Positions 145 through 34,556 of a DNA stretch of 34,556 bases are shown here, in pieces. The stretch comes from a virus. The notes beneath the pieces were generated by a model, which made no database searches, was not told the origin of the DNA, and saw only the letters and a list, made by a program, of their open reading frames with translations. The stretch lies in IMG/VR virus record IMGVR_UViG_3300045790_002272, positions 1 to 34,556 of that record; one strand, 5' to 3'. The translations under genes were made by a program, and so were the position numbers. Position 1 is the first letter of the stretch. Every line of letters begins with the position of its first letter.

Positions 145-208
145 GCCTAACAACGCCATTAAAAATCGGACTCCGCTACCGCTACGCCGTTTATGGCAAG
201 GGTTATAT
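145..208 (+). repeat. attC-like site f1 (64 nt), duplicate of 33635-33698
   Basis: GCCTAAC-AACGC-CAT[T]AAA[AAT]CGG...CCGTTTATG-GCAAGG-GTTATAT. TAAC/GTTA ends, imperfect palindrome, extra bases on the 5' arm. Stop codon of ORF 203-535 lies in the GTTA box. Confidence 0.6.
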
Positions 209-535
209 TTCAAACATGCCTTTGAACTGTGGTGGATGATCTATATTCCTGATCAAGCAATGGTCTTTCATGCTCCTCATTTGGTTTACAAGTTGTTCAA
301 ATTGACCGTCGCCAATGTCGTAAAACCTTACAAATGCATTTTTTCTGTACACGCCTGTTAGCACTATTGTGTTGTTTCCTCTAACCCCTACATCAGCATC
401 AACACGGGTGTAATCTTTCAGCTCTGAAACCTTGTTTTGTACAAATTTACGATGATTTTTCAGGGCAATTCGTAACATCTCGTTTTCTTTTTCAAGAGCT
501 GTAATTCCTAGTTTTCTTTTAATCCAATCTTTCAT
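203..535 (-). CDS. Hypothetical protein (110 aa), cassette-like ORF
   Basis: ORF fills the space between sites f1 and j. TAA stop is the complement of TTA in GTTATAT (202-208). No family recognised. Confidence 0.6.
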   Translation of the reverse strand: MKDWIKRKLGITALEKENEMLRIALKNHRKFVQNKVSELKDYTRVDADVGVRGNNTIVLTGVYRKNAFVRFYDIGDGQFEQLVNQMRSMKDHCLIRNIDHPPQFKGMFEI

Positions 536-862: not shown

Positions 863-1159
863 TTAAACGACTTTTAATGTGTTTGATGTTTTTAGGGTTT
901 GCCTTGGTTTTCTGCCTTTTGGTATTTTTATTTGGCGTACTGATTGCTGTTGTGCGGCTTGGTTATAGTTTGACTTTACCCAGTCTTCCATCGCGCGGGT
1001 GCTTATCCATAAGCTGCCAACGGGGTCTTTGAAGATGTGTTTGCCTTCGCGAATGTTGCCTTTGCTTTTCCAGCTGCGCACGGTGGTTTCTTTTTTGTCG
1101 TTTTGGGCGCACCAGACTTTTAGTGGCACCAAATCTTGTGTTTGTTTGTTATTTAGCAT
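863..1159 (-). CDS. Lambda Xis-like excisionase / DNA-binding protein
   Basis: LVPLKVWCAQNDKKETTVRSWKSKG...WISTRAMEDWV resembles lambda Xis YLTLQEWNARQRRPRSLETVRRWVRE. The tail is basic. Confidence 0.45.
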   Translation of the reverse strand: MLNNKQTQDLVPLKVWCAQNDKKETTVRSWKSKGNIREGKHIFKDPVGSLWISTRAMEDWVKSNYNQAAQQQSVRQIKIPKGRKPRQTLKTSNTLKVV

Positions 1160-1310
1160 GACGGTATTGATATCTAGCTATGTGTACGAGTAAGCAGGCT
1201 GTAATGAATAGCGCTGCGCTAAAGCCGCCATATTGCAATTTTGCAGCGGCGTTGCCGAGCGATAAGTAAATAAGCGGTAGGGATTCGTATAAGAATTTTG
1301 GTAGTTTCAT
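1149..1310 (-). CDS. Small membrane protein (53 aa)
   Basis: Internal ATG at 1310 overlaps the TGA stop of the upstream gene (ATGA). Hydrophobic MKLPKFLYESLPLIYLSLG...FSAALFITACLLV. Confidence 0.4.
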   Translation of the reverse strand: MKLPKFLYESLPLIYLSLGNAAAKLQYGGFSAALFITACLLVHIARYQYRHAK

Positions 1311-1684
1311 AATCGCACCTGTATGGGTTGGTTTATGTTGCCAAGTGGTTTGGAGCCAAATACGCTGGCCCATTGTTGCTTTATGTTTGCTTTATTCACT
1401 GAACCGCAGGCGTTGCAGCGTGATTTGAACCCCGTTATGCTGGTTTGATGCGGTTCAAAATAATCAGTTGATTTGGTTTGGTGGCATCCGCTGCACGTTA
1501 GTTGCTCTGTTGCTGGGTTAGTGCCTGCTAGTGCGTTTTTTATGGCGTGTTCGGTGGTTAGACCGCTTTTTTTAAGCCTTGCTACTCGCTTAGTGAACGC
1601 CTGTAAGCTTGCAGCTGGCTTGTTGGCTTGATATATCGCCTTGGCTGATGAATATTGTTTGCCGTTGTAGGTTAGTTTAGTCAT
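1307..1684 (-). CDS. Hypothetical protein with a CxxC...CxxC zinc-finger-like motif
   Basis: 125-aa ORF with CSGC...CNAC. Lies in the early-left operon and is closely packed with its neighbours. Confidence 0.55.
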   Translation of the reverse strand: MTKLTYNGKQYSSAKAIYQANKPAASLQAFTKRVARLKKSGLTTEHAIKNALAGTNPATEQLTCSGCHQTKSTDYFEPHQTSITGFKSRCNACGSVNKANIKQQWASVFGSKPLGNINQPIQVRL

Positions 1685-1687
1685 GGC

Positions 1688-1843
1688 TTAATGTTTGAAT
1701 GGTTGGAAGGTAACAACAATGTTAAGCCCGGCGGCAAGTAGCCAGTAGCTAGCTAGGTTTCGGTCGCCTTTTATGCCGTAGACGATGGCTGCGCCGATGC
1801 TTAGGGCGATCATTGCGATGGGGAATAGGAATTCAATTTTCAT
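1688..1843 (-). CDS. Small 2-TM membrane protein (51 aa), not in the supplied ORF track
   Basis: Hand translation gives MKIEFLFPIAMIALSIGAAIVYGIKGDRNLASYWLLAAGLNIVVTFQPFKH. ATG 1843 overlaps the TGA of gene 1840-2208 (ATGA). Confidence 0.45.
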   Translation of the reverse strand: MKIEFLFPIAMIALSIGAAIVYGIKGDRNLASYWLLAAGLNIVVTFQPFKH

Positions 1844-2208
1844 TGTTGTTCCTTGTTGATAATGAATACATCAATCGGTAGGTTGTAGCGCCAAATAGTT
1901 TGGTATAGGCGAATGATGTATCGCTGGTCTTTGGGTAGGTCTACTATGAGCAATATGCCTGCGCGTTTGCCGGTGTGCATGGCGTAGAAGAGTGATTGAC
2001 CGATGGCTTCGTAGAATTTGCTGGCAAAGTCTACTTCTATTGCGTGCGTGGCGGTTAAGCAGTCTACTTGTGTGCCGTTGGGTAGCCTGTGTGGTGCGCC
2101 GTTGTGGGCTTTGCACCACGGTAGTTGATAGTCGCGCTCTAGTGCGTGGCTGGTGGTGGTTATTAACAGTAGGGTGATGGTGATGAGTGTTTTCACGATT
2201 TTATCCAT
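1840..2208 (-). CDS. Secreted/periplasmic hypothetical protein
   Basis: N-terminal signal-like MDKIVKTLITITLLLITTTSHA. Motif D..HAIEVDFASK weakly recalls PD-(D/E)xK nucleases, but I cannot confirm this. Confidence 0.5.
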   Translation of the reverse strand: MDKIVKTLITITLLLITTTSHALERDYQLPWCKAHNGAPHRLPNGTQVDCLTATHAIEVDFASKFYEAIGQSLFYAMHTGKRAGILLIVDLPKDQRYIIRLYQTIWRYNLPIDVFIINKEQQ

Positions 2209-2468
2209 TGCATAATATGAGTGTGCATTTGTTTTATCTGCTGATCGTTATAGATTGATTGCTCTATGCAGGTTAGTTCATCGTTTTCTTTTATTCTAAA
2301 TAAGGCAGATGATATTTTTTCGAGGTCCTGCCCTTTATAAAATGCACTGAACTCAAGAGGGTTCATTGTTTGATGTACGCAGTAAAGAAAGTCAGAGTCT
2401 GGTTTTAATTCGTCTTCTAAGCGGGTTAACTCGTTCTGTAGATTTAGATACCTAGTTAATGTATTCAT
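2193..2468 (-). CDS. Hypothetical protein (91 aa)
   Basis: ORF in the operon with overlapping stop/start at both neighbours. Confidence 0.5.
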   Translation of the reverse strand: MNTLTRYLNLQNELTRLEDELKPDSDFLYCVHQTMNPLEFSAFYKGQDLEKISSALFRIKENDELTCIEQSIYNDQQIKQMHTHIMQWIKS

Positions 2469-2665
2469 TTAAATGACCCCGCTATGCGTGCGCGTTCTAC
2501 TTGTTCTGGCCAGCTCATGGCTAGTTCTTGCTTTGCTTCTGTTGATTTGTCGCTAATGAGCGCTAATGACATGATGTTGCCGATTTGTAGTAATTTACGA
2601 AGTTCTTTTCTTTCAACGCTTTCTGAGCGTTGATCTTTAACCATAAAGTTTGCTTTTTTCATCAT
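2465..2665 (-). CDS. Hypothetical protein (about 66 aa; start trimmed to MMKKANF)
   Basis: Strong RBS GGAGG immediately upstream of ATGATG at 2665/2662. The longer 100-aa form overlaps the neighbouring ORF. Confidence 0.45.
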   Translation of the reverse strand: MMKKANFMVKDQRSESVERKELRKLLQIGNIMSLALISDKSTEAKQELAMSWPEQVERARIAGSFK

Positions 2666-2673
2666 ATCCTCCG

Positions 2674-2895
2674 TTAGCGTGTTGCTACTGTGATTCGATT
2701 GTATTTGTTGGGCAGGTTGTTGCAGGCGGTTAGGTCGCGCCCGTACTTGTTTTCTACCCATTGGCATTGACCATTGCCATTAAAAGCTACGGTTGGTGTG
2801 TTAATACAGCTAACAACAGCCAGTGCGATAAACGCCCAAAGGGCTGCTATGGCGGCTACTGTTTGTAAAACGTTTTTGTTGTTATTGTTTTGCAT
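2674..2895 (-). CDS. Small membrane-anchored or secreted protein (73 aa), first gene after the PL-like promoter
   Basis: Hydrophobic segment VLQTVAAIAALWAFIALAVV, several Cys, RBS AAGGA. Confidence 0.5.
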   Translation of the reverse strand: MQNNNNKNVLQTVAAIAALWAFIALAVVSCINTPTVAFNGNGQCQWVENKYGRDLTACNNLPNKYNRITVATR

Positions 2896-2929
2896 GTCCT
2901 TTTGCCTCTTTTTTGTTTAACGTGGAGAT

Positions 2930-2960
2930 AATATATACGTAATGTATACGTATAGTCAAC
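2930..2960 (-). promoter_or_regulatory. PL-like early-left promoter with operator motifs
   Basis: Minus strand reads GTTGACT-atac-GTATAC-atta-CGTATATATT. It matches the PR block 4285-4315 at 23 of 31 positions. Contains TATAC-N5-GTATA (2934-2948). Confidence 0.65.
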
Positions 2961-2983
2961 AAAATGTATATGTTTTTTTTACG

Positions 2984-3012
2984 GACAATAAAAAACCCGC
3001 CGTAGCGGGTTA
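2984..3012 (-). terminator. Rho-independent terminator ending the cI operon
   Basis: Minus strand: ACCCGC-tacg-GCGGGT followed by TTTTTTATT. Confidence 0.75.
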
Positions 3013-3036
3013 GAATTTATTGGTTTTGTGCGTGTA

Positions 3037-3540
3037 TTATTTATTTGCTGATGTTACCCAGCAGGCAGATTTGCTAGCCTGACTTTGAATAAAGCCCATA
3101 TTGATATCATTGAATGTTTTAGAGGTGTTGGCAGGGATTATTTCATAGATAGTGTGCGTGTTTGAGTCTATAACGGTGCCGCTGTTTGCGCTGTGCTGGC
3201 ATTTTATTGTAATGTCTTTAACGGGGAAGGGATTGGTATTGTTAATGGTGAAGTTGGCTTCCATGACTGTGTTAAATGCTGTGGTTTTCCATGAGAAGTC
3301 GCTTATTGTTACTTTGTTTATAATGGATTGCGTTTTTGTTGCCATTTCTTTTGATTTTTGTTCGTTCTCGCTGATGATGCTGGTGCATTGATACACGATG
3401 AACCCGACGAATATGGCGAGGAGTATTTTTATAATTTTACCGATGCCAATGGGTTGCTTTATGGGTGCTCCGCAGGATGGGCATTGGGTGGCTTTTTTGC
3501 TTATTTCTTTGTTGCATTCTTTGCAGGTTGTTAGTGACAT
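3037..3540 (-). CDS. Zinc-ribbon membrane protein co-transcribed with the repressor
   Basis: CKECNKEISKKATQCPSCGAP, then a TM helix (IIKILLAIFVGFIVY), then a roughly 110-aa extracytoplasmic domain. Sits between cI and its terminator. Confidence 0.6.
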   Translation of the reverse strand: MSLTTCKECNKEISKKATQCPSCGAPIKQPIGIGKIIKILLAIFVGFIVYQCTSIISENEQKSKEMATKTQSIINKVTISDFSWKTTAFNTVMEANFTINNTNPFPVKDITIKCQHSANSGTVIDSNTHTIYEIIPANTSKTFNDINMGFIQSQASKSACWVTSANK

Positions 3541-3601
3541 GTTGCATCCTTGTTTGGTTAATGGCTACTTTGAACAGCTTAATCCATTGTAGCGCTGTTT
3601 T

Positions 3602-4237
3602 TTATATCCACGTTTTTAATGATTGTACAACAACGCCGCATAACCTGGCATCAGCTTGCATTTCCATGATGGGGTAACGTGGATTGATGGGCTTTAGATA
3701 GCGTTTTCCGCCATCTATCACTAGTTGTTTGCAGGTTGCTTCGGTGTTGCCGTTTTGGATAACGATAACAATGCTGTTGTGTTCTGCGATGCGAAGCGGG
3801 TCTACGATAACAATTTCATTGTCTTTTATATCAGGTTCCATTGAATCGCCTTGTATGCGCAGTGCAAAGGCGTTTTCGCTGGTTGTGGCGGTGCTTAAAA
3901 CCCAATCTTGCTCATCTTTTGGGTCGTAGTTGTCGCCAATGTCTTTCCAGTTGCCTGCGGCGACACTTGAGATAAGGGGGACGGGTTTAGAATGCACTTG
4001 GTAGGTGTTTGGGGCTTCTTTAACAGCATGGGGCGGTTTGCTGGTTCCTTCTGAGAGCCAAGCTGGGTCAACGTCTAAAACATCACAGGCTTTTATAAAA
4101 TGTGCTCTGGGGATGCCTCCGCGAACTTTCCATAGGTTTACGTTTTGTGGTTCGGTGCTCATTTTTCTAGCAAATTCTGCTTGGCTGATGCCTTTTTGCT
4201 TAAGTGCTAGGTTTAGTCTTTCTCTAAATTTTTCCAT
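3602..4237 (-). CDS. CI/LexA-like repressor (HTH_XRE plus S24 peptidase)
   Basis: GISQAEFARKM HTH, AAG cleavage-site-like motif, GDSM serine and CKQL lysine motifs. Start trimmed to ATG 4237 (MEKFRERL); no SD upstream. Confidence 0.85.
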   Translation of the reverse strand: MEKFRERLNLALKQKGISQAEFARKMSTEPQNVNLWKVRGGIPRAHFIKACDVLDVDPAWLSEGTSKPPHAVKEAPNTYQVHSKPVPLISSVAAGNWKDIGDNYDPKDEQDWVLSTATTSENAFALRIQGDSMEPDIKDNEIVIVDPLRIAEHNSIVIVIQNGNTEATCKQLVIDGGKRYLKPINPRYPIMEMQADARLCGVVVQSLKTWI

Positions 4238-9060: not shown

Positions 9061-9258
9061 ATGTTAAGTGATGATTTGAGTAAAGAGACAAGGAAAGCGG
9101 AGGAGGCGATACGCGTCGCGCTTCAAAAGCTTCATGAGACGACAGGGTTAATACCTGTTTCTGTATCGTTTAGCCCCGTTGATGTTAGATGTATGGATGA
9201 TCATGGGAAACGCAAGCAGGTGGTTATTTCTGATGTGGAAGTGATAGCGAATACTTAA
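9061..9258 (+). CDS. Hypothetical protein (65 aa)
   Basis: ORF preceded by the repeated GGGTGGGGATATG initiation context. Confidence 0.4.
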   Translation: MLSDDLSKETRKAEEAIRVALQKLHETTGLIPVSVSFSPVDVRCMDDHGKRKQVVISDVEVIANT

Positions 9259-9368
9259 CACCCGCATAACCGGCGCAGCTTTTAGCGCCCGGTTCATGCG
9301 CTGGTTAGAAAATTAAGTAAAAGAAACCATTTTAATTCCAACCTTTTTTAATTTTTTTAAATTAATGC

Positions 9369-23343: not shown

Positions 23344-23636
23344 TGGATAAATCTAAATTATTAACGGGGTACAAGCCTGCCAAAACTGATTTTGCAATGC
23401 CAGATGGCGAGGTACTTATATTAAACGGCTTAACAGTATCCCAGCGCGGCAAAATGTCCGAAGCGGTGCGTAATGATGCCGTGCGTGGTCAGGCGTTAGT
23501 TGTGTGTATGAGCGCCGATATTCTGGATGAATCAGACATTGACTTGGTGCTAGAAATGGACGGCAAGCTAGTCAGCTCAATATCAGACAAAATTTTAGAA
23601 ATTAGCGGGTTAGGTGGTGCAGTAAAAAACTCATAA
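23343..23636 (+). CDS. Tail assembly chaperone (gpG-like)
   Basis: Position between the tube and tape-measure genes. Ends 4 nt after the slippery heptamer. Confidence 0.7.
   Translation: MDKSKLLTGYKPAKTDFAMPDGEVLILNGLTVSQRGKMSEAVRNDAVRGQALVVCMSADILDESDIDLVLEMDGKLVSSISDKILEISGLGGAVKNS
23624..23630 (+). promoter_or_regulatory. Slippery heptamer A_AAA_AAC for a -1 programmed frameshift (G to G-T)
   Basis: Zero frame reads GTA AAA AAC TCA TAA. The -1 frame reads ..AAA AAA CTC ATA AAC CGA CCA GAG CAA GTG TTT AAG, continuous with ORF 23651-23956. Confidence 0.75.
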
Positions 23637-28931: not shown

Positions 28932-29111
28932 TTTGAATAGATATTTTGATACTCGAAATATTTATCAACATAAAGTGAAGATTGCTATATAATCCCCGAC
29001 ACACTTTTTGCCCCACTTTGCATAATACAATGCAATATGAGGCAACGAAGATTGTGCCGAAACGAGTAAAAACAACAACTTAAGCATTGTATAGTGTTGA
29101 CTTAAAACGCT

Positions 29112-29142
29112 TAAAAGAGTTCGAGTCTCTCCTTTCGCACCA
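29112..29142 (+). other. attP core candidate: 3' fragment of a tRNA (T-arm, acceptor, CCA)
   Basis: AAGAG-TTCGAGT-CTCTC-CTTTCGC-A-CCA ends at 29142, 42 nt from the int stop. Resembles tRNA-Leu 3' ends (..GTTCGAGTC..CCTTCGGCACCA). No matching 5' half upstream. Confidence 0.65.
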
Positions 29143-29183
29143 TCTATTTAGTTATAAATCAATAGGTTATGTTTTTATATAAT

Positions 29184-30671: not shown

Positions 30672-30706
30672 TTTTTCCTACCTTGCACGGTTAGGTTAAT
30701 GCGGTG

Positions 30707-31048
30707 TTATGCAGCATTCGAGAAGTTGGTAATCTCAGAGATTCCAACACGTTCTTGGTATCCGCTAGATTGAGTAAAATCTTTTGTTAGCCACACATCA
30801 CCCATGCGGCTGGCTCCAGTGACTCGGTAGCGCTCGCCTTTATAATCACAATAGAGTTGGTACTGAGTAATAATATTGGAGAACTTACACTTCAATGTTT
30901 CCGGCATTCTCTTCATATTCAAAAACCAGCTTGCGTACACGTCTGTGTCGGGATGGTCAATGAATTCGTCAACATGCTCCATAACAAGCAGGTCAACTCG
31001 ACCGCTTACCGCGTCGTTTGTTTCAAATTCTGTGGTTCCGTTTATCAT
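30707..31048 (-). CDS. Hypothetical protein (113 aa)
   Basis: RBS GGAGA. TAA stop is the complement of TTA in GTTATGC (30706-30712). Confidence 0.55.
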   Translation of the reverse strand: MINGTTEFETNDAVSGRVDLLVMEHVDEFIDHPDTDVYASWFLNMKRMPETLKCKFSNIITQYQLYCDYKGERYRVTGASRMGDVWLTKDFTQSSGYQERVGISEITNFSNAA

Positions 31049-31107
31049 TTTCGTGTCTCCAAGTTTGTGCCACTCAATCGCGGCAAGTTACCTTCATCGT
31101 TATGTGT

Positions 31108-31356
31108 CTAAATCATATCGTCGATTCGTTTTTTTAATCCGTTAATATTGCGAATATCATCAAGCCTTCTATGGCCATGGAAATAATCATCAATTAGATT
31201 CATATCTACCCACCGACTTTCCTCTAAGTCAAAAAACTGCTTTTCGCAATTAAGATACACTCCTTCCATTTCATCGCCATAGTTGTACATGCAATAAGTG
31301 ACTGCCATATTCGGTGCATCATCCACTATCTGCGTATCAGTTTTGTAGCCCTTCAT
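31108..31356 (-). CDS. Hypothetical protein (82 aa; start trimmed to MKGYKTD)
   Basis: Strong RBS GGGAGGA 4 nt upstream of ATG 31356. Confidence 0.5.
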   Translation of the reverse strand: MKGYKTDTQIVDDAPNMAVTYCMYNYGDEMEGVYLNCEKQFFDLEESRWVDMNLIDDYFHGHRRLDDIRNINGLKKRIDDMI

Positions 31357-31371
31357 AAATCCTCCCGTAAC

Positions 31372-31496
31372 ACATAACAACAGCTTCATTGCGACCCTGC
31401 GGGTCGTGGCTTTGTTCTGTATTTTCGTTTGCGTCTGTCATCGTCTCAATCTCCTAAACCTACTTCCCCGCAGGGCGCTATAAGCAGGGGTTATAC
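31372..31496 (+). repeat. attC-like site (125 nt)
   Basis: ACATAAC-AACA-GCTT[C]ATTGCG[A]CCCTGCGGG...63 nt...CCCGCAGGG-CGCTAT-AAGC-AGGG-GTTATAC. About 19 bp of pairing, with two unpaired bases 6 nt apart on the 5' arm. Confidence 0.65.
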
Positions 31497-31769
31497 GGAT
31501 AGTCCGTCTCGATCAGCCAGCGCTGTCTCGCATGAATTTAGTAGCGTTGATGTGTGAACTAAGTTTCTTTCTGCCAATCCTAGCTGTAGCTCAAGCTCCT
31601 TAATTCTATTCAAGCTTCGCTCAGCAAGATCAACGCAGGAAACGGTAATGAACGACTCGTACCCTGATTCAGTTTCATACAGAACATCAATCTCTGAGTT
31701 ACCCAAGTCGTCAGGAGAGTAAGCGGCTAATGTTTCTAGTTGATATTTTATGTGTTCGTTTTCATTCAT
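31491..31769 (-). CDS. Hypothetical acidic protein (92 aa; start trimmed to MNENEH)
   Basis: RBS GGAG upstream of ATG 31769. The longer form would run into the attC-like site. Stop lies in GTTATAC. Confidence 0.55.
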   Translation of the reverse strand: MNENEHIKYQLETLAAYSPDDLGNSEIDVLYETESGYESFITVSCVDLAERSLNRIKELELQLGLAERNLVHTSTLLNSCETALADRDGLSV

Positions 31770-31787
31770 AGTTTTTACTCCGTTTTC

Positions 31788-31849
31788 GTATAACAAGTCT
31801 TTCAAAAAGAGCCGGAACAGCACCGGCCTGTTTAACTAGGGCGTTAGCG
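31788..31849 (+). repeat. attC-like site (62 nt, type 1)
   Basis: GTATAAC-AAGTC-TTT[C]AAAAAG[A]GCCGG-aacagca-CCGGCCTGTTTAAC-TAGGGC-GTTAGCG. Confidence 0.7.
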
Positions 31850-32005
31850 AGCCTGGCGGCGCTTGTTCAGCTTCGCAACATAGGCCCGTATCTGCTTAAA
31901 ATCGTCAGGGTGGGCATAAAGGCTTCGAATCTCTTTAAGCCCCTCTGCTGCCCTGCGCTCCTTTAATTCTGCCTGCCGCTCCGCAACGGTTTTGGCAGCA
32001 CTCAT
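31844..32005 (-). CDS. Small basic protein (53 aa), ERQAxLxERRAAxG family; not in the ORF track
   Basis: Hand translation gives MSAAKTVAERQAELKERRAAEGLKEIRSLYAHPDDFKQIRAYVAKLNKRRQAR. ATGA overlap with the upstream ORF. Paralogue of 33693-33836. Confidence 0.55.
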   Translation of the reverse strand: MSAAKTVAERQAELKERRAAEGLKEIRSLYAHPDDFKQIRAYVAKLNKRRQAR

Positions 32006-32187
32006 ATCCGTTCCGCCTTTGTCGCTGGAACAGACTTGAGGTCTCCTTTAGGCCAGTTGCACTTAGATGACTGAGGGGAGCAAAGCAGTATCACGCGCCC
32101 ACTTGCTCCAAATTCGATATCCTCAATCTTCCAGTCTGCACCGTTGAATTTAACTATTGCGCCCTTTTCAATTTCTTCCAGTTTCAT
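32002..32187 (-). CDS. Hypothetical protein (61 aa), first gene of a two-gene unit
   Basis: RBS GGTGA. Preceded by its own promoter. Translationally coupled to the 53-aa ORF. Confidence 0.5.
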   Translation of the reverse strand: MKLEEIEKGAIVKFNGADWKIEDIEFGASGRVILLCSPQSSKCNWPKGDLKSVPATKAERI

Positions 32188-32213
32188 ATCTTCACCTTTA
32201 GGTTAGTCGTAAC

Positions 32214-32244
32214 ATAATAATAGCTGTTAGTCGTAACGTGTCAA
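32214..32244 (-). promoter_or_regulatory. Cassette-internal sigma70-like promoter flanked by 12-bp direct repeats
   Basis: Minus strand: TTGACA, 17-19 nt spacer, ATTATT/TATTAT. GTTACGACTAAC occurs twice (32226-32237 and 32202-32213), bracketing the -10. Confidence 0.55.
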
Positions 32245-32251
32245 GTGTTTT

Positions 32252-32321
32252 CGCTAACACCCCGCAGCATCCGACCCTCAAAGCTTGCAGCTTTTCGGTC
32301 GGCTGTGCTCCAAGGTTATAT
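32252..32321 (+). repeat. attC-like site (70 nt)
   Basis: CGCTAAC-ACCCC-GCAGCATCCGACC-ctc-AAAGCT-tgc-AGCTTT-tc-GGTCGGCTGTGC-TCCAAG-GTTATAT. Spacers are 5 and 6 nt. Extra bases on the 5' arm. Confidence 0.55.
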
Positions 32322-32537
32322 GTACGCCTTTACAAAAAGTGGTGCTCTTAAATATGTCTTTGACGCGTCATCAAAAACCATATTATTCGGATTTAGCTCT
32401 CTGTAATTTTTAAAATCTCTCGTAGCAGTTGCAGGGCTAATTCCAAAGAAATCTATAATAAATTCACGTTTTATTTGGCCGTATTTATCTAGCAAAAAGT
32501 CAATCAGCCTGAGTCTTTGTTCAATTGCGTAGTTCAT
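32316..32537 (-). CDS. Small wHTH protein (73 aa; DeoR/HTH_11-like)
   Basis: RLRLIDFLLDKYGQIKREFIIDFFGISPATATRDFKNYRE. Stop lies in GTTATAT. Confidence 0.55.
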   Translation of the reverse strand: MNYAIEQRLRLIDFLLDKYGQIKREFIIDFFGISPATATRDFKNYRELNPNNMVFDDASKTYLRAPLFVKAYI

Positions 32538-32560
32538 AATTTACCTTTTTCACGGTTTTC

Positions 32561-32622
32561 ATATAACAATTCTTTCAATCAGAGCCGGAAAAGCACCGGC
32601 CTGTTTAACTAAAGCGTTATGT
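32561..32622 (+). repeat. attC-like site (62 nt, type 1)
   Basis: ATATAAC-AATTC-TTT[C]AATCAG[A]GCCGG-aaaagca-CCGGCCTGTTTAAC-TAAAGC-GTTATGT. Confidence 0.7.
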
Positions 32623-32952
32623 GTCTTCATTTCTTGATTTCATTAAGACTCTAATTTCTTGGGCTATTATTTGACGCGCCCTGGTCGCGCTTACACCTAG
32701 AACTTCGCCAGCTTGTGCGTAAGTCTTTCCGTCTAATTTATGTAGTGTTAGGATGATTCCTCGGAGTCGCTTATTCTGATTTTGTAGCTTTTGATAGCTC
32801 TCGTAGGTCACGTTGGCTTCTTTTTTATCGCTTCTGTTGCTTTTTTTGAGATCAGCTTCTTTTTTTCTAGAGGCCTTGATTTCCTCCGTTAGGCTCCTTT
32901 CTTTATTTCTCACTCTTTCTCGTTCTTCAATTAATACGCTTAAATCGCTCAT
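32617..32952 (-). CDS. Coiled-coil protein with a C-terminal sigma70-region-4-like HTH (111 aa)
   Basis: KTYAQAGEVLGVSATRARQIIAQEIRVL. ATG lies in GTTATG (complement of the TAAC box). Stop lies in GTTATGT. Confidence 0.55.
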   Translation of the reverse strand: MSDLSVLIEERERVRNKERSLTEEIKASRKKEADLKKSNRSDKKEANVTYESYQKLQNQNKRLRGIILTLHKLDGKTYAQAGEVLGVSATRARQIIAQEIRVLMKSRNEDT

Positions 32953-33051
32953 AACAAGTATCTCCAGTTGACAAATAACCGCATCGGCATTTGTCGTTAA
33001 ATTTAAAGTTTTCAGTAGCGGTTATTTGCTACTGAGAATTTGGCGTTATGC
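32949..33051 (+). repeat. attC-like site (103 nt, type 2)
   Basis: TCATAAC-AAGTA-TCTC[C]AGT-tga-CAAATAACCGC...GCGGTTATTTG-ct-ACTGAGA-ATTTGGC-GTTATGC. The complement of TCTCC is the GGAGA RBS of ORF 32617-32952. Confidence 0.65.
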
Positions 33052-33261
33052 TTCGGGCAGTTTGTAGTTTCCATCATTTCGCGGCCACAAGAAAATAGCA
33101 TCCTTCGGAGGAATCCACCCTCTAGCCTTTGACCCTACAGGGTGAGCTATACAGTCTGATCGATTAACACCGTAAAGTTTTGGCAGTTGCCAAGCGCTTA
33201 TATAGTGCCTATCACCATCTTTGGCTACTACCCCACCTCCGCTTAATACATAAATAGGCAT
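33046..33261 (-). CDS. Hypothetical protein (71 aa)
   Basis: ATG lies in GTTATG, RBS GGAGA lies inside the type-2 site, stop lies in GTTATGC. Confidence 0.55.
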   Translation of the reverse strand: MPIYVLSGGGVVAKDGDRHYISAWQLPKLYGVNRSDCIAHPVGSKARGWIPPKDAIFLWPRNDGNYKLPEA

Positions 33262-33359
33262 AACAAGTATCTCCAGTTGACAAATAACCGTTCCGGCTTT
33301 GTCATTAAATTTAAAGTTTTCAGTAGCGGTTATTTGCTACTGAGAATCGGGCGTTAGGC
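33258..33359 (+). repeat. attC-like site (102 nt, type 2)
   Basis: Near-identical to 32949-33051, with differences in the central loop and the right-hand spacer. Ends GTTAGGC. Confidence 0.65.
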
Positions 33360-33696
33360 CGCTATGTAAACGCGGTGTTGTCCGGCAACTTTCATATCTT
33401 TTGTAAGCTCCTTTATTTCACCAAGCTCAACCAGCCTGTCTACGCAAGCCAGCATTGCCCACGAATCACCAGTGCAGCCAGCAATAATCTCTTGGCACCT
33501 CGCAGCCCCCGAGGTTTCTAAAAGCCGCTTTGCTTGGTCGCGTATTTTTAAAAATTGCTTTTGGCCTTCTTCTGTAAAAATGGCTGCCTTTTCATCTTCA
33601 TAGTTGTACATAAATCAATCCGTAGTTGGGCGCTGCCTAACAACGCCATTAAAAATCGGACTCCGCTACCGCTACGCCGTTTATGGCAAGGGTTAT
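33351..33696. repeat. 346-bp direct repeat, copy A (ORF plus attC-like site)
   Basis: Identical to 34290-34556 continued at 128-206, except one base (33618 a versus 128 c). Confidence 0.9.
33354..33611 (-). CDS. Hypothetical protein (85 aa), copy A
   Basis: Protein identical to 34293-34550. Stop lies in GTTAGGC. Confidence 0.6.
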   Translation of the reverse strand: MYNYEDEKAAIFTEEGQKQFLKIRDQAKRLLETSGAARCQEIIAGCTGDSWAMLACVDRLVELGEIKELTKDMKVAGQHRVYIAA

Positions 33697-33698
33697 GT
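33635..33698 (+). repeat. attC-like site f2 (64 nt)
   Basis: Same as 145-208 but ends GTTATGT. Confidence 0.6.
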
Positions 33699-33836
33699 TG
33701 CCTTTCGCAATTTTCTTACTAATTCATCAACTTTTACTTTCTCAGCATTGGTTAAGAAAAACTCCCGTCTTTTTTGGCCTAAAGCAGCTCTACGTTCTCG
33801 CAGAGCTGCTTGGCGTTCTTTATTTGATTTAGGCAT
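33693..33836 (-). CDS. Small basic protein (47 aa), ERQAxLxERRAAxG family; not in the ORF track
   Basis: Hand translation gives MPKSNKERQAALRERRAALGQKRREFFLTNAEKVKVDELVRKLRKAT. ATG lies 2 nt after the stop of 33839-34144. Stop lies in GTTATGT. Confidence 0.5.
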   Translation of the reverse strand: MPKSNKERQAALRERRAALGQKRREFFLTNAEKVKVDELVRKLRKAT

Positions 33837-33838
33837 TG

Positions 33839-34144
33839 TTATCCGCCAAAAGGCTCTGATCCGTTATTGCTACCAAAATCTTGTCCCCAAATTTCAATAT
33901 TCCAATCCTGTATCGCTTTTTGACAGATGGGTTCGTAGTAGCTTTTTTCTCCTGATTTAACAATAATATCAAGAGCTTTTATAGTCGCTTCCATTTCACT
34001 ATCAGATGTTTCTCCGTTAAATCCTTCCCCCATTATATCTATAGCATCTATACCAGAATCTATCCCATCACATAATGTTTCTATGTCATTCATATTGAAG
34101 TTTTCTTCTAATCCATCTACTACATGTTTAAATAAAGTTGTCAT
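33839..34144 (-). CDS. Strongly acidic hypothetical protein (101 aa)
   Basis: About 21 D/E versus 5 K and 0 R by my count. RBS GGAG. Preceded by its own promoter. Confidence 0.55.
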   Translation of the reverse strand: MTTLFKHVVDGLEENFNMNDIETLCDGIDSGIDAIDIMGEGFNGETSDSEMEATIKALDIIVKSGEKSYYEPICQKAIQDWNIEIWGQDFGSNNGSEPFGG

Positions 34145-34173
34145 TTCCTACTCCTTTTCGTTAATGTAGGTAT

Positions 34174-34202
34174 ATTATTGCATTGTTACCGGTAACAGTC
34201 AA
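34174..34202 (-). promoter_or_regulatory. Cassette-internal sigma70-like promoter with a palindromic operator
   Basis: Minus strand: TTGACT, 17-nt spacer, AATAAT. The perfect palindrome GTTACCGGTAAC (34185-34196) fills the spacer. Confidence 0.6.
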
Positions 34203-34236
34203 GCGATTAATGCAAATAAAATAATTTAGGACGGCA

Positions 34237-34298
34237 ACATAACAAGTCATTCAATCAGAGCCGGTAAAGCACCGGCCTGTTTAACTAAAGCGTTAGGC
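34237..34298 (+). repeat. attC-like site (62 nt, type 1)
   Basis: ACATAAC-AAGTC-ATT[C]AATCAG[A]GCCGG-taaagca-CCGGCCTGTTTAAC-TAAAGC-GTTAGGC. Confidence 0.7.
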
Positions 34299-34556
34299 CG
34301 CTATGTAAACGCGGTGTTGTCCGGCAACTTTCATATCTTTTGTAAGCTCCTTTATTTCACCAAGCTCAACCAGCCTGTCTACGCAAGCCAGCATTGCCCA
34401 CGAATCACCAGTGCAGCCAGCAATAATCTCTTGGCACCTCGCAGCCCCCGAGGTTTCTAAAAGCCGCTTTGCTTGGTCGCGTATTTTTAAAAATTGCTTT
34501 TGGCCTTCTTCTGTAAAAATGGCTGCCTTTTCATCTTCATAGTTGTACATAAATCA
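34290..34556. repeat. 346-bp direct repeat, copy B (continues at 128-206 across the circular junction)
   Basis: Exact match to 33351-33617. The remainder matches 33618-33696 with one mismatch. Confidence 0.9.
34293..34550 (-). CDS. Hypothetical protein (85 aa), copy B
   Basis: Identical to 33354-33611. Confidence 0.6.
   Translation of the reverse strand: MYNYEDEKAAIFTEEGQKQFLKIRDQAKRLLETSGAARCQEIIAGCTGDSWAMLACVDRLVELGEIKELTKDMKVAGQHRVYIAA

Follow-up and report, generated by a model that had tools for sequence, protein, structure and literature searches.

The question raised by this locus is why a viral genome carries the same 346 nt twice, each time with ends at a GTTA motif, and whether those ends mark the movement of a gene cassette. 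The window is the whole stretch of DNA that was analyzed, a 34,556-nt IMG/VR record. Its ends overlap by 127 nt (1–127 = 34430–34556); therefore the contig is a circularly permuted form of a 34,429-bp circle, and the second copy of the repeat crosses its artificial ends. An earlier note had claimed that positions 33351–33696 equal 34290–34556 plus 128–206 with a single mismatch (33618 A versus 128 C), and we reproduced both the identity and the coordinates. On the left, the flanks split at once (...AATCGG|GCGTTAGGCC versus ...ACTAAA|GCGTTAGGCC). The right edge was also found where the note had put it, immediately after GGGTTAT (GGGTTAT|G versus GGGTTAT|A). The positions that it gave for three attC-like sites at these edges were right to 1–2 nt; we place the type-2 site at 33257–33359, the type-1 site at 34236–34298 and the 64-nt site at 33634–33698.

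The crossovers are set by the R′ boxes of the attC sites, at 33353|33354 and 33692|33693, so that the cassette proper is 339 bp, from G|TT to G|TT. The 346-nt identity exceeds this cassette by 3 nt (GCG) at its left end and by 4 nt (TTAT) at its right end, an overshoot explained by the likeness of the R′ cores of differing sites. Outside the cassette, the two contexts have only 3–4 nt in common. The unit contains an 85-aa ORF followed, in the attC top-strand direction, by its own 64-nt attC. We consider it quite likely that the repeat is one integron-type gene cassette occupying positions 8 and 10 of an 11-cassette array. Its parts are as follows.

33354–33692, cassette c8 (copy B), 339 bp, from the TT after one crossover to the G before the next
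33354–33611, minus strand, 85-aa ORF (ORF85) of copy B, stopping at a TAA that is complementary, in reverse, to the TTA with which the cassette opens
33634–33698, plus strand, 64-nt attC of copy B, R″ GCCTAAC ... R′ GTTATGT, 9/12 architecture pairs
34293–34556, cassette c10 (copy A), first part, continuing as 128–202 over the circular junction
1–202, cassette c10 (copy A), remainder; 1–127 repeat 34430–34556; attC at 145–208, crossover at 202|203
33618 (A) versus 128 (C), the sole difference between the copies, in the ORF85 Shine-Dalgarno sequence

On the minus strand, copy B has GGAT and copy A has GGAG as the ORF85 Shine-Dalgarno sequence, and given this difference the two copies may be unequally translated. 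GGAG is also the sequence in a phage with one copy (L002, see below).

The 11 cassettes, of 301–600 bp, lie within 4.3 kb (30707–34429 plus 1–600). Crossovers (G|TT) fall after 30706, 31099, 31490, 31843, 32315, 32616, 33045, 33353, 33692, 34292, 202 and 600. The main features outside the repeat are these.

30672–30709, plus strand, left junction, conserved ...CCTTGCACGGTTAGGTTAATGCGGTG|TTA, located where attI would be; four first cassettes follow it in four phages
30707–34556, plus strand as attC top strand, first part of the array (c1–c10), with every ORF on the minus strand
33257–33359, plus strand, type-2 attC of c7, whose R′ G|TTAGGC is the left junction of copy B; 11/12 pairs
33693–34292, cassette c9, between the copies, with ORF47, ORF101, a promoter-like sequence, the palindrome TGTTACCGGTAACA and a type-1 attC
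33693–33836, minus strand, ORF47 of c9
33839–34144, minus strand, ORF101 of c9
34202–34174, minus strand, promoter-like sequence of c9
34236–34298, plus strand, type-1 attC of c9
203–600, cassette c11, the last, with a 110-aa ORF at 203–535 (minus strand) and a short attC at 556–606; backbone from 601

Three GTTA motifs are present in the left junction. The attC of the first cassette (30979–31105, 127 nt, 11/12 pairs) overlaps the annotated 5′ end of a 113-aa ORF (30707–31048), which probably starts at an internal ATG at 30982, within a CATAAC box like those of the other cassettes. At the other end of the array, the last attC (556–606) has no L′ box or spacer ahead of GTTATTC, and the TTA past the last crossover is the stop codon of a backbone ASCH/DUF3850 gene (601–852).

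What kind of genome carries this array? The terminase is 55–63% related to those of Ralstonia, Halomonas and Klebsiella prophage-type phages. The genome also encodes one tyrosine integrase, a Cro-like gene product and a cI-like repressor that has a Peptidase_S24 domain; the window is a temperate, tailed marine phage. Its host is probably Cycloclasticus, the only evidence being that the exact 85-aa protein is labelled at NCBI as belonging to a Cycloclasticus pugetii metagenome-assembled genome. Every gene on the stretch that leads from the repressor gene over the circular junction to int is on the minus strand, and the array is located between the integrase region and the early-left genes. On the plus strand, the entire backbone has a positive GC skew, minus-strand early genes included (1001–4000, +0.14 to +0.22), and the array has a negative one (1–1000 and 31001–34556, −0.08 to −0.14). 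By this reversal, the array is compositionally foreign to the backbone. Searched as DNA, the array matched none of 50,697 phage records, Rfam reported nothing at gathering thresholds in the whole window, a type-1-site 20-mer and the integrase protein found nothing among species-representative genomes, and a 30-mer from the 64-nt site was absent from IMG/VR. We also considered the array as the phage attachment site and rejected this reading, the attachment site being expected beyond the 3′ end of int (~28932–29183), on the opposite side of the gene.

Central to the cassette reading is whether the sites are attC sites and, if so, which strand is their top strand. From 30707 to 600, imperfect palindromes, which read (C)ATAAC...GCGTTA on the plus strand, lie between the small ORFs. 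Our reference was attC(aadA1) of plasmid R100, in which intI1 is on the minus strand and aadA1 and its site are on the plus strand. Three type-1 sites and the 64-nt site aligned to attC(aadA1) with scores of 50–60 in the plus orientation and 30–42 in the minus orientation, shuffled sequences giving ~24 ± 4. Their register is that of attC(aadA1): a 7-nt R″ box, a spacer of 5 nt, 3 bp, an additional C or G, 6 bp, an additional A and the stem. The 3′ arm mirrors this order without the additional bases and terminates in G|TTRRRY. In an alignment of 16 sites, aadA1 included, TAAC and GTTA do not vary, and the inverted core boxes R″ (RYYYAAC, 5′) and R′ (GTTRRRY, 3′) occur in all 11 array sites and in a lone site elsewhere in the window. 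The sites are also alike among themselves, type-1 sites by 86–93% over ~60 nt and type-2 sites by ~93%.

RNAalifold predicted no structure from a plain MAFFT alignment of the 16 sites because their variable centers were misaligned, and single-site MFE folding often fails to recover the R-box pairing. RNAalifold was replaced by an explicit, strand-specific architecture scan with a threshold of at least 10 of 12 pairs; an earlier symmetric hairpin scan could not separate the strands. With plus as the top strand, the scan gave 8 matches in the window, all within the array. With minus as the top strand, it gave one clear match, the lone site at 9253–9311 (12/12 pairs), and shuffled windows gave 0.0 matches per window. 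Two array sites are weaker, the 64-nt attC with 9/12 pairs and the last site (556–606) with a shortened 3′ arm. An attC-like hairpin at 23428–23501, inside the tail-chaperone coding region, was ambiguous (9–10/12 pairs on either strand) and may be due to chance or be some other structure.

Polarity controls were scanned in the same way. The aadA1 site was read correctly, and in a Vibrio anguillarum integron on phage record MK672802 ten VCR-like sites were found, all after plus-strand ORFs and facing away from intIA. In IMG/VR contigs encoding IntI, 7 of 8 matches were upstream of intI and all 8 had their top strand opposite the strand of the intI gene. Judged by sequence architecture, the sites are genuine attC sites, and the plus strand of the window is the top strand of the array. 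The opposite assignment, which would restore the canonical order of ORF then attC, was rejected: the minus strand has the lower aadA1 score, the extra bases are on the wrong arm, the identical ORF85 copies would carry different attC sites, and the integrase end would be left without a complete site. An IS200/IS605-type or REP-type hairpin element was rejected as well, there being one site per unit rather than two subterminal hairpins and no TnpA or RAYT gene, and the sites being homologous to attC(aadA1).

The genes of the array run opposite to their sites. At all 11 sites, a bottom-strand open frame of 56–134 codons terminates at R′, usually with TTA as its stop codon TAA, and the top-strand frames ending at R″ are merely 4–49 codons long. 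In the aadA1 and Vibrio anguillarum controls, top-strand frames of 139–337 codons end at R″. The canonical layout, a promoterless top-strand ORF followed by attC, is thus absent from the array. Start codons lie in or beside the R″ box (CATAAC; GTTATG on the coding strand), and therefore the attC of each cassette is the 5′ leader of its gene. This inverted layout also predominates in five other, unrelated viral contigs (L072, L021/L055, L056, L042 and L082), a sample biased by retrieval with a type-1-site 16-mer. These contigs hold arrays of 3–6 attC sites and have only attC types in common with the window; L072, for instance, has type-1 and type-2 sites 90–96% identical to those of the window on a different backbone. 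We offer only tentatively the broader reading that such arrays, rather than being bacterial cassettes carried along by a phage, form a phage-specific ‘reverse’ cassette system, in which accessory early genes with a 5′ attC on the recombinogenic strand would be swapped among unrelated marine phages via attI-like and lone attC sites. In such a system, the attC bottom strand, being the non-template strand, would become exposed when the early operon is transcribed. A bolder version, with the phage's own integrase in place of IntI as the driver, is improbable.

Small genes of phage type make up the cargo of the cassettes. Of the 657 homologues of ORF85, the ones examined lie in operons of large lytic phages without attC sites. 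ORF71, ORF110 and ORF47 match PHROG families, and other cassette proteins include a BrxR-like winged helix and a sigma-70 region 4-like HTH. Each of the two cassettes with two ORFs (31844–32315 and 33693–34292) has a strong sigma-70-like promoter match on the minus strand (32244–32217 and 34202–34174, respectively), with direct repeats or a palindrome beside it; by their sequence, these cassettes look like self-regulated modules. Their distal genes (ORF53 and ORF47) have an ERQAxLxERRAA motif in common. The ORF101 gene (window 33808–34146) is 99% identical in an unrelated phage (L099, L102, L103 and L104), where it adjoins a Peptidase_M15_3 endolysin gene and has a similar operator palindrome and no attC. 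This gene is thus known both within and outside cassettes.

Comparison of related phage genomes, which the earlier note had recommended, bears directly on the edges of the repeat. The same 85-aa protein was found on 13 contigs. Two copies are present in the window, L001, L097, L004, L005 and L100. Both copies are internal, with 100% identity, in L001 (34,551 bp, from another sample) and L097 (34,610 bp); since these contigs start elsewhere, the repeat is real and not a contig-end artefact. One copy is present in L002 (33,650 bp, c7|ORF85|c11, C allele), in which exactly 939 bp are missing. L098 (33,605 bp, backbone 99–100% identical) has none; its array is J|x...|c5|c9|c11, with junctions ...AAAGCG|TTATGTTGCC and ...AAAGCG|TTATATTTC. 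Here c9 occurs as the same unit, and its direct joining to c11 (...AAAGCG|TTATATTTC) is the empty site of copy c10. A predicted empty junction, GGTTAATRCGGTGTTATTCTTC, was not found in IMG/VR.

Whole arrays differ in the same manner. L006/L007 (IMG/VR), L008 and L098 have backbones 94–100% identical to that of the window and entirely different cassettes. Backbone identity ends at 30706|30707 (...GGTTAATGCGGTG|TTA) and returns at 600|601 (G|TTATTCTTC), such that, with the window, four different first cassettes follow the left junction. In one phage, the left junction is followed by the cassette starting TTATAAGGAATGG, which in the unrelated phage L072 follows an attC. In each case the gene moves with the attC beside its start codon, which fits plus as the top strand and not the opposite reading. 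Each cassette difference between relatives starts and stops at G|TTA, which by genome comparison alone places the crossover between the G and TT of R′. Cassette end points thus coincided with G|TTA every time, as the earlier note had anticipated. Its main proposal, insertion of a single cassette at G|TT after two unrelated sites, is supported by four independent results: the attC(aadA1) architecture, the empty site in L098, the single copy in L002 and the junctions of the relatives. A given difference between variants may be either a gain or a loss.

A second locus shows the same precision.

9253–9311, minus strand (top strand = window minus), lone attC, 12/12 pairs, empty in the window

The lone attC is at the end of a plus-strand ORF (9061–9258) that uses the R′-box TTA as its stop codon. 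In a relative (L052), a ~400-bp cassette is inserted exactly at the G|TTA of this site.

Which enzyme could have moved the cassettes? The only integrase of the window is a phage enzyme.

29184–30371, minus strand, phage tyrosine integrase with an arm-type DNA-binding domain (Arm-DNA-bind_2), lambda-like; not an integron integrase

No NCBIfam integron-integrase model matched this protein above its cutoff, the best hits being weak Xer-type matches far below theirs. When IntI1 and IntIA were compared with the window by tblastn, the best E-value was 0.07 and involved only the catalytic box of the phage integrase. The protein had no sequence relative in the PDB. A distant relative (44% identity) lies at a prophage end in L011 (Ga0316207_10001107) with no attC array beside it, and that end adjoins tig-clpP-clpX-lon-hupB and tRNA genes of a gammaproteobacterial chromosome. 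In the parts examined of other array-bearing viral contigs, no IntI was found; array-bearing IMG/VR contigs were likewise not among the 15 contigs that encode an IntI relative, a weak negative given the few patterns searched. Unlike a complete integron, the array has no intI beside it. With 11 sites and no IntI gene in the 34.4-kb genome, it is therefore a CALIN (at least two attC sites, no integron integrase nearby).

Lacking an IntI gene of its own, the phage would depend on an enzyme supplied in trans by the host, which would be the most economical explanation. Most likely, an integron integrase would have recombined the folded attC bottom strand. A circle of the ORF85 cassette, or of this cassette plus c9, would be excised by attC × attC recombination and inserted anew into a different attC at its G|TT, with the donor copy kept because such events would be resolved by replication. 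A host SOS response would also induce the prophage. To our knowledge, attI sites have no general consensus; the left junction may act like attI or like a genomic attG hotspot. Several points count against this explanation: the window has no IntI, the host assignment is based only on the label of a metagenome-assembled genome, bottom-strand genes are non-canonical, mid-array insertion (attC × attC) is the less efficient route in studied integrons, the 64-nt attC and the shortened last site fit the architecture less closely, and the one-copy variant may as well be a deletion. The precedents are published ones: IntI1 recombines attC sites of virulent phages (PMC9892861), intI was reported in a Cycloclasticus symbiont by an IntegronFinder screen (PMC10295459), and IntI inserts cassettes at genomic GWT sites (10.1101/2022.09.11.507474).

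Alternatively, the phage’s own tyrosine integrase could move the cassettes, maybe with a 95-aa protein (ORF95) encoded between int and the array, in which case the junction 335 nt upstream of int would be attI-like and the platform would be free of IntI. Int, ORF95, the junction and the array do follow the order and polarity of intI, attI and cassettes, the junction with its three GTTA motifs has been used by four first cassettes, and no array-bearing contig was found to carry an IntI gene. However, the relative polarity has a 50% chance of being coincidental, and the integrase is lambda-like with an arm-type domain, its similarity to IntI being limited to the catalytic box. Moreover, an unrelated phage has arrays of the same attC types beside a head-morphogenesis-like gene, at an end that lacks an integrase, and attC(aadA1), to which the sites are homologous, is a known substrate of IntI-type enzymes. 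We consider this alternative improbable and prefer a host integrase acting in trans.

Marginally less credible is the proposal that homologous recombination, unequal crossing-over or replication slippage between similar hairpins made the duplication, the GTTA ends being simply where site similarity stops. In its favor are the likeness of type-1 sites to one another (86–93%, ~60 nt) and of type-2 sites (~93%), and the L002 allele, which is that expected from a crossover in the first 267 nt of the repeat. But the copies are flanked by different site types, type-2 versus type-1 on the left, with the 64-nt site adjoining different cassettes on the right. As only 3–4 nt are common outside the cassette, ordinary homologous recombination cannot have produced these junctions, and the view in the earlier note that simple homologous duplication would not keep to such boundaries gains support. 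Furthermore, the c9|c11 junction of L098 joins a type-1 attC to c11, with no homology to the 64-nt site, and four relatives with unrelated cassettes, as well as the lone attC, show equal G|TTA precision. For the one-copy variant, a later deletion by homologous recombination (RecA- or Red-type) between the 346-bp repeats is an equally good explanation.

An assembly artefact, in which the repeat was collapsed or misresolved in a short-read graph and the real molecules are a one-copy phage plus a 939-bp circle or variant, is highly implausible. In its favor, the contig does end inside the repeat (with the break exactly one base before the sole mismatch) and one-copy genomes exist. Against it, at least three assemblies with different start points hold both copies internally. 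Both ends of the unique 594-bp part of c9 connect to the repeat, and different unique flanks follow the A and C alleles, so that the two-copy path would be the only single-molecule path through the graph.

Integrons are bacterial gene-capture devices whose cassettes often encode anti-phage defences. Here, integron recombination sites organize the variable early genes of a temperate phage, close relatives of which differ by whole cassettes. Should these sites be served by a host integrase, phages can shuffle accessory genes with host machinery, and cassettes can travel between cells inside virions. The phage-type cargo on the strand opposite to the usual one, together with the ORF101 module that is 99% identical outside cassettes in another phage, is a natural system in which to ask how new cassettes arise.

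Several aspects of this locus have been described before. CALINs in bacteriophage genomes were reported by Qi et al. 2023 (PMC9892861), who found in attC × attI conjugation assays that attC sites of virulent phages are recombined by IntI1 at G|TT. Like the array in the window, these consist of attC sites and cassettes in a phage genome without intI. The published work required at least two predicted attC sites, gave a detailed example with three, and concerned single genomes; in contrast, we found 11 cassettes plus a second locus, population variants differing by whole cassettes, a conserved left junction, attC types that recur in unrelated phages, and genes that without exception occupy the attC bottom strand. 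Arrays of the Vibrio cholerae superintegron type (PMC13108822) resemble ours in that one array can hold two copies of a cassette, each bounded at the R′ crossover, an arrangement explained by excision of a circle and its re-insertion. Those sedentary chromosomal integrons are beside intI and attI on a chromosome and have homogeneous attC sites, whereas the present array is phage-borne, contains several attC types, and has its second copy in mid-array rather than at attI.

The attC(aadA1) site of the class 1 integron In2 on R100 has the same boxes, spacers and two extra bases, and is recognizably similar to the type-1 sites. Yet aadA1 is on the attC top strand, upstream of its site, while the phage genes are on the bottom strand with the attC of their own cassette at the 5′ end. 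For a first cassette, insertion at attG (GWT) sites (Loot et al., 10.1101/2022.09.11.507474) would be a way into a GTT of the backbone, and a candidate attG-like GTT in the window overlaps the stop codon of the ASCH gene. However, attG insertions were shown in E. coli experiments, and at least four first cassettes at one junction are more like attI or a strong hotspot. Publications thus already cover CALINs in phages, the duplication of cassettes and insertion by IntI at non-att sites (PMC9892861, PMC13108822, 10.1101/2022.09.11.507474), and therefore the duplication itself is an ordinary integron event. What is new is the size of the array and its turnover at a fixed, conserved junction of a temperate phage, the second attC locus, the phage-type cargo and the uniformly inverted genes.
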